From the NCBI GenBank assembly GCA_016703535.1, contig JADJBV010000001.1, forward strand, positions 6,382,270 through 6,446,269: a DNA stretch of 64,000 nt. The letters run 5' to 3'. This DNA is from Deltaproteobacteria bacterium (lineage in GTDB: Bacteria; Myxococcota; Kuafuiibacteriia; Kuafuiibacteriales; Kuafuiibacteriaceae). The notes below the pieces were generated by a model that ran no database searches, was not told the DNA's origin, and saw only the letters and a program-made list of their open reading frames with translations. This document shows, piece after piece, positions 32,671 through 35,096 of this stretch (within the stretch, counting starts at the first letter, position 1; the number at the start of each line of letters is the position of its first letter). A program made the translations under genes and the position numbers.

Positions 32671-33726
32671 CTAAAGCGGACAGGTCGTCCCGCACCGAGA
32701 GCAGCCGGCCGTCTGCTTTCCGTCTACACAGGTTCGGTGTTCTGCTCGCCACTGCACAGCGGCCTCATCGGCCGCCGTCTCGTCTAGATTGTGCAGGTCA
32801 ATAATGTGGGCAGCGACCCGGGCCGCGCGAACCGCCTCCAGCGTGGATTCGAGGCTCGGGATGCCTCCTGTATGCTCCTCGCGCGTCACGGCCGCAAGCA
32901 CGTGGGCTGCTCCGTGAACACCCATCAGAGTGGCGCCGATAGCGGCCGACACATGGTCCTGTCCGTCCGCCGCGTCGGTAGGAATGGGGCCCAAGGGCAT
33001 GACTGGGAAGCCAGCAGGAGCTAGGATCGAAGCCACTCTCAGGATGTCCCGCGGTCGAGCATGACCAGGTGACTCAACAATCACGCTTGTTCCGCTTCGC
33101 ACGAGCTGTGAAGCGAGGTCCAACTGGGCCGCGATCTCTCCTAGTTGCGCTTCATCCAGCGAGTCAAAGATGTTCGCCGAGCGAAAGGACGCCCCGAGGC
33201 TCAGCGTCACGCCCCGGCGAGCTGCCTCCTCTGCCAGCTTCGGCATGATGTCCTGGTAAGCGTTGCCTCCGTCTCCGCGAAGTAGGAGGTCGTTGATGAC
33301 CAATCCGCCCCCTCGGGAAGTCCACGGAACACGTCGCCGACGCGCTAGGCGAACCAGCTCACGAGTCGGGGTCGGATGAATCGTCAGGAGGCCGGCACCT
33401 CGTTCCATCTGCTCGATGGCTCTATTGAGTAAGGCAGAACGATCAATCTGGCCCGATGTCGAGACAGCGGAATACACGGGCAACGTCGCGGCGACAAAGC
33501 CATATGAAACTATGCACTCCAGGAGCGGTTCGTTCGACGCAACAATCGATAGATCGGATACGATATCGGGACCGACTTCCATCTGTGCAAGCGCGTCAAT
33601 TTTTGCTCGCTGGGATCCGAAGTCGCGAATGTGGCTAGAGCCGACCAGGGCCATCACTGACGTTCGAATCCCAGGACCTACCGCGACGCTCGGGAGCGCT
33701 CGCCGCCCTAGCAAGGCAACAGTCAT
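32671..33726 (-). CDS. Short ThiC-family (HMP-P synthase-like) radical enzyme paralog, 351 aa
   Basis: ThiC blocks: VPIYQA-like LPVYSA, TIHaG-like LLTIHPT, SRGG, ESPGH (VIVESPGHARP), LGPIPTDAADGQDHVSAAIGA. C-terminal CSRCGTTC (CX2CX3C). ATGA overlap with the ThsA-like stop at 33723-33726. Confidence 0.7.
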   Translation of the reverse strand: MTVALLGRRALPSVAVGPGIRTSVMALVGSSHIRDFGSQRAKIDALAQMEVGPDIVSDLSIVASNEPLLECIVSYGFVAATLPVYSAVSTSGQIDRSALLNRAIEQMERGAGLLTIHPTPTRELVRLARRRRVPWTSRGGGLVINDLLLRGDGGNAYQDIMPKLAEEAARRGVTLSLGASFRSANIFDSLDEAQLGEIAAQLDLASQLVRSGTSVIVESPGHARPRDILRVASILAPAGFPVMPLGPIPTDAADGQDHVSAAIGATLMGVHGAAHVLAAVTREEHTGGIPSLESTLEAVRAARVAAHIIDLHNLDETAADEAAVQWRAEHRTCVDGKQTAGCSRCGTTCPL

Positions 33727-35096
33727 TTGAGGCTCGCTTCCACGCACCGAACCACGTCGGCAGCGCTGACACGGCCACTTCTCGCCTTTTCTAAGTAGGC
33801 TGGATCGATTTTCTGGAGCAGCCCGGCTACGCCCGGCTCATCGAGTTGCAGCGCGGCCAGACCCTTGCGTTGGATTGGCACAGGAACGATTTGGCACCGA
33901 TGGGCGCGCGCAACCTCCAGTTCCGCGGCCGTGCCCATGCCTCCATCAAACACAACCATCGTCCTGGCGGCGGCAAAGAGGCCTCCACGGTATCGCTTGA
34001 GATCGTCGAGGAGTGACCTGTCGTTTGAAAATGCAGGCCTTATTGCATAAGGATTCGGAAAAATCCTAATGCGCTGACGCAGGTCGGTTTGTCTTCGAAG
34101 GCAAGCATCGCCGAAAGCGTTGACGGCATGGCGGCCAATACCCTCGGACTGGCCGTCCAGAAGCACAATCGCCGGATCGATTTCGGAGAGCTTTGCTCCC
34201 ACCAGTGCCGCAAGGTCAGTCGCACGACGAGCAGCCTTATGCCCACCACTTACGAACACGGCCCGGTCCCGAGCTCGGAGGGCTAGATTGTCGAATACGT
34301 GCTGGATTTCATCGTATCCTTGGACGATCGCACAACGAATTCCAACCCGCATGAGATCCTCGGTCCAGAGTGCCTGGCGCTTCGCGTCTTCAGCACTGCT
34401 GGCTACCTTAAGCAGCATAAAATGTTCGCGAGTCGCGCGTTTGGCCAACCTCCTTGCTTGAACCAGCGCGGTTGAGATGCTGGAATCCCGATAGCCATAG
34501 CCAGCAAACAGGAAAGTTTTGTGGAGCAAGTCGTGCTGGAGGCGCTGCACAAAACTGGGCCGACGAGCCGCAAATTCCTCATAGTCGTCGGTCGTGATGA
34601 TGAGGTCGTTGGGCGAGCTTCGCTCGATGCATCCATGCACCTTCAGTATTTCAAAGTCATCAGCGAGGACATCCTGCGTAAAGTCTTGATCGTCAATCCG
34701 CACGACAACCCTCCGGTGTGCCATCGAGTCCTCAAGAAGACGATCGAAATTTGTGGTCCAGACGGTATCAATCGGAGTGAGCCGCAGGGCGGCGTGGTAG
34801 GAGTTTGGAAGAAGTCCGCGATTTAGCTTCGCTCTAAATGCCGCGACCAGGGGACCACGATTGCCCTTGTCGGCATTTACCAAATGCTGTGCGATCAACG
34901 GTAAGTCGTCGGTCTCCTTCAGGTCCAACCCGATCCGCCTCGCGTGCGGCTTCAATAGACCAAGCCAACTTGGCGCATTCGACTTGGCGGATATCCCGGA
35001 TCCCAAAAAGTACGCGCCCACACCGGCCGCGATTGCCTGAGCCATCCCATCAACCACGTAGGAGAGATCGACTCCAACCGACTTTGGTTCAGCCAT
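33723..35096 (-). CDS. ThsA-like protein: N-terminal SIR2-like (SIR2_2) domain + C-terminal SLOG/LOG-like domain, 457 aa
   Basis: SIR2_2 motifs FLGSGISAKSNAPSWLGLL, TTNFDRLLE, ILKVHGCIER. C-terminus AVFVSGGHKA...VVFDGGMGTAAELEVA (LOG PGGxGTxxE-type motif). ATG 35094-35096 with GAGGGAG upstream. Confidence 0.7.
   Translation of the reverse strand: MAEPKSVGVDLSYVVDGMAQAIAAGVGAYFLGSGISAKSNAPSWLGLLKPHARRIGLDLKETDDLPLIAQHLVNADKGNRGPLVAAFRAKLNRGLLPNSYHAALRLTPIDTVWTTNFDRLLEDSMAHRRVVVRIDDQDFTQDVLADDFEILKVHGCIERSSPNDLIITTDDYEEFAARRPSFVQRLQHDLLHKTFLFAGYGYRDSSISTALVQARRLAKRATREHFMLLKVASSAEDAKRQALWTEDLMRVGIRCAIVQGYDEIQHVFDNLALRARDRAVFVSGGHKAARRATDLAALVGAKLSEIDPAIVLLDGQSEGIGRHAVNAFGDACLRRQTDLRQRIRIFPNPYAIRPAFSNDRSLLDDLKRYRGGLFAAARTMVVFDGGMGTAAELEVARAHRCQIVPVPIQRKGLAALQLDEPGVAGLLQKIDPAYLEKARSGRVSAADVVRCVEASLK

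Follow-up and report, generated by a model that had tools for sequence, protein, structure and literature searches.

How might a Thoeris-type effector be switched on where its companion gene encodes a ThiC-family protein and no TIR enzyme? In the known types of Thoeris, TIR enzymes build the signals from NAD+. The question is raised by a stretch of 64,000 nucleotides (nt) from the genome of a member of the Myxococcota (Deltaproteobacteria bacterium, family Kuafuiibacteriaceae; assembly GCA_016703535.1, contig JADJBV010000001.1, positions 6,382,270 to 6,446,269), referred to throughout as the window, in which a gene for a ThsA-like protein (a SIR2 NADase domain followed by a SLOG domain) and a gene for a short ThiC-like protein form a cassette of two genes and about 2.4 kb (Table 1). 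We take this gene pair to be one horizontally mobile functional unit. Statements about its function rest on sequence, structure prediction and genomic context.

The gene pair and its occurrence

An overlap between a ThsA-like SIR2-SLOG gene and a ThiC-family gene had been described in a first-pass annotation of the window, and the open reading frames (ORFs), Pfam and PADLOC all confirm it: the plus strand reads TCAT at positions 33723-33726, so that on the minus strand the ATG of the ThiC-like gene overlaps the TGA of the ThsA-like gene. The stoichiometric co-translation that had been read from this ATGA does not follow from it; such overlaps are common in operons, and an alternative GTG start for the ThiC-like gene is open at 33747, so that the overlap by itself counts for no more than chance. 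It carries weight because all homologous loci have the two genes overlapping or abutting. A promoter and terminator scan of positions 32200-37600 returned nothing above shuffled expectation.

Co-occurrence of the two genes elsewhere had been set beforehand as a test of their association, and the association held: of 17 distinct assessable loci, drawn from at least six phyla and including one fusion, all 17 have the ThsA-like gene immediately upstream of the ThiC-like one. These are the window, L003 (Bradyrhizobium), L005 (Paenibacillus), L006 (Desulforamulus), L008 (Flavobacterium), the metagenome loci L009-L011 and L013-L015, L090, L093 (Bryobacterales bacterium), L094, L095 (Tissierella), and L096 and L097, from genomes of the window's own phylum; locus L012, which comes without upstream DNA, was left out of the count. 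The loci were gathered by an alignment-based metagenome scan, exact look-ups and genome searches; a single-protein pattern scan of genome contigs yielded Flavobacterium only. In L003, L005, L006, L090 and L094, the called genes share 1 to 29 nt; in the Tissierella locus the two are fused, and in the remaining loci a ThsA-like match lies directly upstream of the ThiC-like gene. The fusion, P0169, is a single ORF of 826 amino acids (aa; L095:6001-8481), in which a linker of ~25 residues connects a complete ThsA-like part with a complete ThiC-like part, the latter closing with the C-terminal cysteine motif. In Pyxidicoccus and Myxococcus vastator, where the contigs of the two proteins have equal lengths, the two genes are probably neighbours too.

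The two proteins also diverge together. Over 12 loci, the pairwise distances between ThsA-like proteins correlate with those between ThiC-like proteins at r = 0.81, a value that none of 5000 permutations of a Mantel test equalled. When a word-limited search was run in reverse, from the ThsA-like protein, 46 of the 47 other proteins returned were 33-52% identical to it; many come from contigs equal in length to those of ThiC-like hits, and the three ThsA-like homologs whose context was checked all have a ThiC-like gene directly downstream. Both families are under strong purifying selection: across distant phyla, their alignments keep 69 and 43 columns invariant. Complex prediction from the ThsA-like and ThiC-like alignments gave a score of 0.00, which amounts to no verdict and is neutral as to binding. 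The remaining genes of the window's island have homologs in none of 15 other cassette loci, and the neighbours vary by locus; no other island gene is thus conserved with the cassette, and the unit is therefore exactly two genes. That these two genes work together we regard as close to certain.

The absence of a TIR partner, likewise remarked upon in the first-pass annotation, extends to all that was searched. The host genome (91% complete) contains no match to PF08937 (ThsB_TIR) or PF13676 (TIR_2), and none of the listed genes of the cassette loci examined has a TIR-domain Pfam hit; the TIR-linked ThsAs on plasmids that served as control do have TIR neighbours.

The two proteins

The ThiC-like protein matches the Pfam profile ThiC_Rad_SAM at 1.9e-44, over profile positions 50-369 of 420, and the ThiC motifs quoted for it at first reading are all present. 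It nevertheless falls far short of the models that define ThiC function, scoring 153.5 bits against a cut-off of 410 in NF009895 and 135 bits against 460 in TIGR00190 (the cut-offs of the ThiC equivalog models span 410-650 bits), whereas true ThiCs from metagenomes score 540-707 bits. It likewise scores 118 bits against a cut-off of 700 in the BzaB model TIGR04386; BzaB is set apart by this model score only, and sequences or models of BzaA and BzaF were not in the comparison. The host genome has a true ThiC of its own on a second contig (629 bits, Pfam ThiC model), and none of the annotated neighbours at the loci examined is a thi or cob gene. Homologs some 350 aa long, 52-65% identical to the window protein, number in the hundreds and occur in organisms such as Myxococcus, Pyxidicoccus, Bradyrhizobium, Rhizobium, Azotobacter, Methylicorpusculum, Paenibacillus and Desulforamulus; to call the protein a truncated ThiC, as had been done, is misleading, since this is the conserved length of the whole family.

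In a quick maximum-likelihood tree of 81 ThiC-family proteins, computed with IQ-TREE, a long branch parts 37 short from 44 long proteins, with a support of 100 in the SH-like approximate likelihood ratio test (SH-aLRT); the 16 ThsA-linked ThiC-like proteins form one group (support 99), and every long clade has representatives above the curated ThiC cut-off. The low scores, the separate clade, the true ThiC elsewhere in the genome and the lack of thi or cob neighbours set the paralog apart from thiamin and cobamide enzymes, as its proposed new role had presupposed. The public label 'phosphomethylpyrimidine synthase ThiC' is almost certainly wrong for these short proteins.

The AlphaFold2 (AF2) model of the ThiC-like protein has a predicted local distance difference test score (pLDDT) of 91.2 and is confident except for the C-terminal tail. 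Its best Foldseek match is the ThiC of Arabidopsis, AtThiC (4s27; query-normalised TM-score, TMq, 0.87; root-mean-square deviation, rmsd, 2.0 Å; 27% identity), and superposition on the Arabidopsis and Caulobacter ThiCs gives TMq values of 0.85-0.87, an rmsd of ~2 Å and 26-27% identity; the catalytic (beta-alpha)8 core of ThiC is present. Relative to ThiC, the protein lacks ~45 residues at the N-terminus, ~22 residues of the linker between core and cluster, and the C-terminal helix. The median number of residues before the first conserved glycine is 25 in the short proteins and 68 in the long ones, the linker from the core to the cluster has 14 and 36 residues, respectively, and the tail after the last cysteine 3 and 21.

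Residue roles were taken from the AtThiC structures described in PMC4389238. Residues that handle the phosphate, the cofactor and the metal are kept (given as AtThiC = window): the phosphate anchors Tyr286 = Y85, His322 = H117, Ser342-Arg343-Gly344 = S137-R138-G139 and Arg386 = R182; the ribose contact Glu422 = E218; the contacts to S-adenosylmethionine (SAM) Gly230 = G29, Leu259 = L59 and Glu489 = E284; and the metal-site ligands His426 = H222 and His490 = H285, which are invariant. The cysteines C342, C345 and C349 align with the cluster cysteines of ThiC and are invariant as well. Other ligand contacts are replaced. In place of Asn228, the contact to a ribose hydroxyl, 14 of 15 ThsA-linked proteins have Leu, and a sister clade of short proteins retains Asn; Asp383, which contacts N3 of the imidazole, is Ala or Thr in the short clade; Met takes the place of Tyr449, the stacking partner of the C5 amino group, and Arg that of Met572 of the cluster loop, which stacks on the SAM adenine, each of them in 38 of 38 short proteins. 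Every one of these replaced positions holds a residue that is itself conserved in the short clade.

The C-terminal motif consists of C333, eight residues, C342, two residues, C345, three residues, C349, P350 and L351, all six named residues being invariant among 22 homologs; the stretch CSRCGTTC, which had been singled out earlier, occupies residues 342-349, and the invariant Cys-Pro-Leu is the C-terminus of the window protein. The CX2CX3C ending on which weight had been placed is thus present, but it is not diagnostic, as the same spacing occurs in 12 of 44 long ThiC-family proteins. The fourth cysteine, C333, is found in 15 of 15 and 22 of 23 members of the short clades and not in long ThiC proteins; it might ligate the fourth iron of the cluster or form a Cys4 metal site. 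Judged from the alignments, the features distinctive against ThiC are C333, the Arg in place of the cluster-loop Met, and the invariant Cys-Pro-Leu after the cluster motif. We read the ThiC-like protein as a non-canonical radical-SAM enzyme that is predicted to be active, and its substrate as a 5-phospho(deoxy)ribosyl compound that would be bound as in ThiC, while the base, and probably the chemistry, would differ from the conversion of aminoimidazole ribotide (AIR) into hydroxymethylpyrimidine phosphate (HMP-P).

The ThsA-like protein matches the PADLOC ThsA model PDLC00407 at 5e-66 over its full length (residues 14-417); in Pfam, the SIR2_2 match (Table 1) is accompanied by a STALD match below threshold. 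Its closest solved relatives are SeThsA (7uxt) and BcThsA (6lhx). In Foldseek, the whole of the AF2 model (pLDDT 91.8) aligns to BcThsA, SeThsA and EcThsA (TMq 0.65-0.71), and the closest structural relatives are all anti-phage ThsA effectors. KomC counts among the relatives of the SIR2 domain in both sequence and structure. Within this domain, N116, D118 and H154 are invariant among 27 homologs, N116 and H154 corresponding to the catalytic N112 and H152 of BcThsA, for which residue roles were taken from a preprint (10.1101/2022.05.07.491051). The TIR-linked ThsAs on plasmids are at most 31% identical to the window protein.

The SLOG domain is the more divergent part; searched alone, it finds SeThsA as its sole match (E = 0.0018). 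Its invariant residues are G284, H286, G315, Q316, G319, N348, P349, Y350, R370, G385, G388, T389 and E392. The pocket was mapped by profile alignment to SeThsA and BcThsA and by alignment with two TIR-linked plasmid ThsAs, using the contacts of BcThsA to 3' cyclic ADP-ribose (3'cADPR) given in the same preprint. The core that binds the ribose-phosphate, about whose residues the first-pass annotation had left a question, is kept: the Gly-Ser phosphate loop (G289/S290), R371 (= R370), G399 (= G388) and E403 (= E392) all have equivalents. K388 is replaced by Met, and the insert of 10-12 residues that follows it in canonical ThsA is absent; the position of the adenine-stacking L326 is variable, and the equivalent of Q359 is not reliably mappable. 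In turn, H286, Q316, N348-P349-Y350 and T389 are invariant residues of the clade's own. With no equivalent of Lys388, no insert, and invariant residues of its own, the domain is therefore unlikely to sense the same cADPR isomer; from this pocket pattern, it would be expected still to bind a ribose-phosphate ligand, but another one than the canonical.

Other partners and genomic surroundings

The sister clade of short ThiC-like proteins, 32-37% identical to the window protein and without a ThsA-like gene, comes mainly from metagenome contigs of low guanine-cytosine (GC) content, of which at least one belongs to a human gut assembly. The sister-clade gene is followed in 22 of 26 loci, usually with an overlap, by a gene for a conserved protein of 350-400 aa, which has a soluble N-terminal part and two to three C-terminal hydrophobic (transmembrane) helices. 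This partner has no match in Pfam, PADLOC, PHROGs or Atlas, and no Macro, SLOG or other known domain was detected in it; hhalign comparisons of its family with the ThsA-like family and with a ThiC-like fusion protein of 724 aa gave no relationship. The neighbours of the sister-clade genes include BrxL, an AbiEii-like AAA_21 ATPase and DNA methylases, and none of the PADLOC 2023 families matches the sister-clade proteins.

Further short ThiC-like domains form the N-terminal part of proteins of ~700 aa (P0212, P0216, P0218 and P0231-P0233), whose C-terminal half of ~340 aa has no Pfam match; language-model features (Atlas) give a weak lead from this half to Pol-beta-type nucleotidyltransferases. 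A few deep-branching short ThiC-like genes stand without either type of partner (L018:3658-4935, L028, L037 and L039:4947-6813). In L018, the ThiC-like gene is overlapped by an upstream gene for a protein of 425 aa that belongs to no known family; in L039, a ThiC-like ORF of half length (221 aa) is followed by a gene for a protein of 389 aa. They may stand for additional types of partner. Interchangeable partners around one enzyme family are what signal-based defence systems show.

In the window, the GC content falls from ~0.67 to 0.56-0.62 between 30 and 38 kb. Within this island, a gene pair matched by the PADLOC candidate system PDC-M19 lies directly upstream of the cassette on the same strand; it was considered as part of the cassette and rejected, having no homologs in 15 other cassette loci, and appears to be a separate system because it is absent from them. 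The genes for a putative SAM methyltransferase and a DUF1848 protein, which overlap each other and are convergent to the cassette, had been proposed as members of the system; this proposal fails, as the same 15 loci contain no homologs of either. Within 20-48 kb, no tRNA gene marks a boundary of the island. Just outside the low-GC island, a gene with HD and AAA_33 (kinase-like) domains overlaps a gene of the RNA-ligase family (26668-28643, minus strand), a pair that looks like an RNA-repair module; further out, in the high-GC flank, a large gene for a multi-haem cytochrome c (24759-26270, minus strand), with c3/c7-type domains and paired CXXCH motifs, belongs to the host backbone, not to the island.

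The neighbours at other cassette loci differ from those in the window: a Type ISP-like enzyme and an HKD+Snf2/DrmD-like helicase in L003, a DNA methyltransferase and a PD-T4-6-like kinase fused to an ORC/CDC6-like part in L090, and a PD-T7-4-like DUF4145 protein in L005; in L093, the cassette lies inside an island with an integrase, DUF3987 and an excisionase-like gene. Occurrence is patchy: the cassette was found in 0 of 40 relatives, and among 400 further genomes sampled from the phylum it is present in 2, which belong to one genus. The low-GC island, the defence neighbours and the patchy occurrence together thus carry the signature of a horizontally moving defence gene set.

Table 1. Coordinates of the cassette, its parts, neighbouring genes in the window, and related loci. 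Positions without a locus name are those of the window.
Feature	Position	Strand	Remarks
ThsA-like gene, SIR2 NADase domain then SLOG domain	33723..35096	-	457 aa; PADLOC ThsA model match
Short ThiC-family gene	32671..33726	-	351 aa; Pfam ThiC_Rad_SAM; predicted non-canonical radical-SAM enzyme
ATGA overlap, ThsA-like stop / ThiC-like start	33723..33726	-	read from sequence
SIR2 domain, ~residues 14-270 of the ThsA-like protein	34287..35057	-	Pfam SIR2_2, 1.4e-24
Divergent SLOG domain, ~residues 275-457 of the ThsA-like protein	33726..34274	-	motifs GS(G)H, DGQSxGxG, FPNPY, R370, GGMGTxxE
Four-cysteine C-terminal motif of the ThiC-like protein	32674..32730	-	presumed iron-sulphur (Fe-S) site; six residues invariant, 22 homologs
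PDC-M19B match	35217-36050	-	PADLOC 1e-108; directly upstream of the cassette, same strand
PDC-M19A match	36057-37304	-	PADLOC 7e-100; C-terminal DUF488
Putative SAM methyltransferase	30134-31222	+	weak Methyltransf_34 match, 6e-07
DUF1848 gene	31198-32142	+	1.5e-88; also matches PADLOC RTasDUF1848 model
Sister-clade loci L016-L038	e.g. L022:4932-7081, L016:4871-6989		
Bacillota-type loci with thyA-folA/thyX context	L095:4649-8989; L014:2190-6318; L094:144-2042; L006:5548-6366; L010:2688-2927		

Possible functions and comparison with known systems

Taken by itself, a role of the cassette in defence is probable. How it would work is a more tentative matter, and the account that we prefer, at somewhat less than an even chance, is a Thoeris-like system of abortive infection: the ligand for a re-tuned SLOG domain, which gates the SIR2 NADase, would come from the ThiC-family radical-SAM enzyme. 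In the infected cell, the ThiC-like enzyme would carry out radical chemistry with SAM, its C-terminal Fe-S cluster and its His-His metal site, on a substrate with a (deoxy)ribose 5-phosphate carrier and a base other than that of AIR; the product would retain the ribose-phosphate handle and bind to the re-tuned SLOG pocket of the ThsA-like protein; binding would turn on the SIR2 NADase, NAD+ would be depleted, and phage replication would stop. What triggers the system may be that the substrate itself appears, for example as a nucleotide made by the phage. The step that identifies the enzyme's product with the SLOG ligand, which was the central idea of the first-pass annotation, is favoured by indirect evidence, though we would sooner doubt it than rely on it.

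Several observations weigh against this account. No model in the PADLOC 2023 library matches the ThiC-like protein. In tblastn searches, it has no match among plasmids at 1e-40 and only weak matches in a phage collection (25-30% identity), of which those with an annotation are true ThiC genes. The cassette of several Bacillota sits directly after thyA-folA or thyX, in a housekeeping neighbourhood (cysS-mrnC ... rlmB-yacP-sigH) with ThyX-like remnants downstream of the cassette; thyA-folA or thyX immediately adjoins it in L006, L014, L094 and L095, and dihydrofolate reductase (DHFR) is twice fused to the N-terminus of the ThsA-like protein (P0155, 632 aa; P0148, 551 aa). This adjacency and these fusions hint at a metabolic link; the Bacillota arrangement may reflect either a functional link or a thyA-dfr module that is mobile. 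The ligand of the SLOG domain could have nothing to do with the ThiC-like enzyme; a stable complex or an enzyme pair would account for the fusion and the tight coupling of the genes no less well than a signal that diffuses and amplifies; and the fourth invariant cysteine could fully ligate the cluster or bind zinc, changing the chemistry.

Other explanations draw on the same observations. A ThiC-like sensor subunit might bind the ThsA-like protein 1:1 and hold it inactive, with no diffusible signal involved; the occupancy by SAM, Fe-S or substrate would then report the state of the cell, such as the depletion of SAM by phage SAM-degrading enzymes, and release or a conformational change would turn on the NADase. 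Overlapping or abutting genes, a natural single-chain fusion, tight co-divergence of the two proteins and strict conservation of the SAM-binding and metal residues are what such a guard would lead one to see, but pure binding needs no invariant residues for the substrate phosphate, in the catalytic core or in the SLOG pocket, and the unrelated membrane partner of the sister clade is easier to explain by a small-molecule intermediary; we consider a guard improbable. The intact residues of the radical-SAM machinery, combined with altered base-contacting residues, could also belong to an enzyme that is itself antiviral in the manner of viperins, which provide an anti-phage precedent for radical-SAM enzymes; it would make a toxic or chain-terminating analogue or destroy a precursor needed by the phage, and the ThsA-like protein would sense this or act in parallel. 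With Leu for Asn228, as in the ThsA-linked clade, its substrate could be a deoxyribonucleotide. As such a co-effector would leave unexplained both the constant company of a ligand-sensing SLOG domain with a clade-specific pocket and the membrane protein of the sister clade, which is typical of signal-activated effectors, we give it little credence.

The Bacillota loci and the DHFR fusions are a ground for supposing that the two genes serve to make or salvage a cofactor or metabolite derived from nucleotides and possibly tied to the metabolism of thymidylate, folate or NAD; the SLOG domain would act as a LOG-like phosphoribohydrolase, the SIR2 domain as a ribosyl transferase. Further, the GGMGTxxE of the SLOG domain comes closer to the LOG catalytic motif than the canonical ThsA sequence does. 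A metabolic module of this kind is hard to reconcile with a distribution as extremely patchy as that described above, with a low-GC island, unrelated defence genes at independent loci and one copy in an integrase island, with closest structural relatives that are all anti-phage ThsA effectors, and with the lack of conserved pathway genes alongside; it too has only a small probability. Finally, a decaying orphan thsA that happened to come to lie beside a degraded thiC paralog, with no joint function, would account for a ThiC-like protein shorter than ThiC and for the missing TIR partner; both ORFs are intact, however, and selection is strongly purifying on both families, and the synteny in 17 of 17 loci, one of them a fusion, effectively refutes chance adjacency, whose probability we put at next to nothing.

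If the preferred account of an enzyme-supplied ligand is true, the pairing of a ThsA-type effector with a ThiC-type partner breaks the rule that Thoeris signals are made by TIR enzymes from NAD+; it brings one of the most complex known catalysts of radical rearrangements into bacterial immunity, and it predicts a chemically new messenger and a new ligand specificity of SLOG. The system is small, and widespread but rare; its recognition also corrects the public ThiC annotation. A bolder generalization, which we think rather unlikely, is that the short ThiC-family enzymes are a new class of immune signal synthases: upon infection, a substrate of the (deoxy)ribonucleotide type, possibly made by the phage, would be rearranged into a previously unknown messenger, which would be read by interchangeable effectors (the SIR2-SLOG NADase, the membrane protein of the sister clade, and possibly the domains fused in the ~700-aa forms).

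Among known systems, the closest is Type I Thoeris. The ThsA-like protein shares with its effector the two-domain architecture, the fold, the catalytic residues Asn and His and, in the SLOG domain, the core that binds the ribose-phosphate; the cassette, like Type I Thoeris, is a two-gene operon in defence islands; unlike it, it has a ThiC-family enzyme in place of the TIR signal synthase ThsB, which makes 3'cADPR or 1''-3' glycocyclic ADP-ribose (gcADPR). With ThiC and the Bza enzymes, the partner has in common the core fold, the residues for SAM, phosphate and the His-His metal site, and the C-terminal Cys triad, but it differs from ThiC in its scores below the cut-offs, its separate clade, the replacement of the AIR contacts Asn228, Asp383 and Tyr449, and its extra cysteine.

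For an NAD-depleting SIR2 effector that responds to a base-modified mononucleotide made by neither a TIR nor a cGAS/DncV-like nucleotidyltransferase (CD-NTase) enzyme, there is a precedent in Kongming (KomABC), in which a SIR2 NADase is activated by deoxyinosine triphosphate (dITP) from non-TIR enzymes (10.1101/2024.12.20.629578; PMC13454610). Kongming, however, operates with a deaminase, a HAM1-like partner and a phage kinase, and has neither a SLOG domain nor a radical-SAM enzyme. Prokaryotic viperins, radical-SAM synthases of antiviral nucleotides, are an established anti-phage precedent; they fold as canonical radical-SAM enzymes, carry CX3CX2C at the N-terminus, and make a product that acts as the effector itself. 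The cassette would resemble them in the use of a radical-SAM enzyme on a nucleotide-type substrate in an anti-phage context, which for the cassette is a prediction; its enzyme differs in having the non-canonical ThiC fold and in being paired with a ligand-gated NADase. The membrane partner of the sister clade, in turn, recalls Type II Thoeris, in which a TIR protein is combined with a TM-Macro effector (PMC11204291): in both settings, one family of signal-makers would serve either a SIR2-SLOG or a membrane effector, although no Macro domain is detectable in the sister-clade protein. In the open-access literature, no paper combines ThiC with ThsA, SLOG or Thoeris as whole words, and matches that combine ThiC with SIR2 are irrelevant (paywalled papers were not covered); one large language-model survey of defence mentions none of ThiC, ThsA, SLOG and Thoeris. 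What is new here, set against all these systems, is a Thoeris-type effector with an unprecedented partner.

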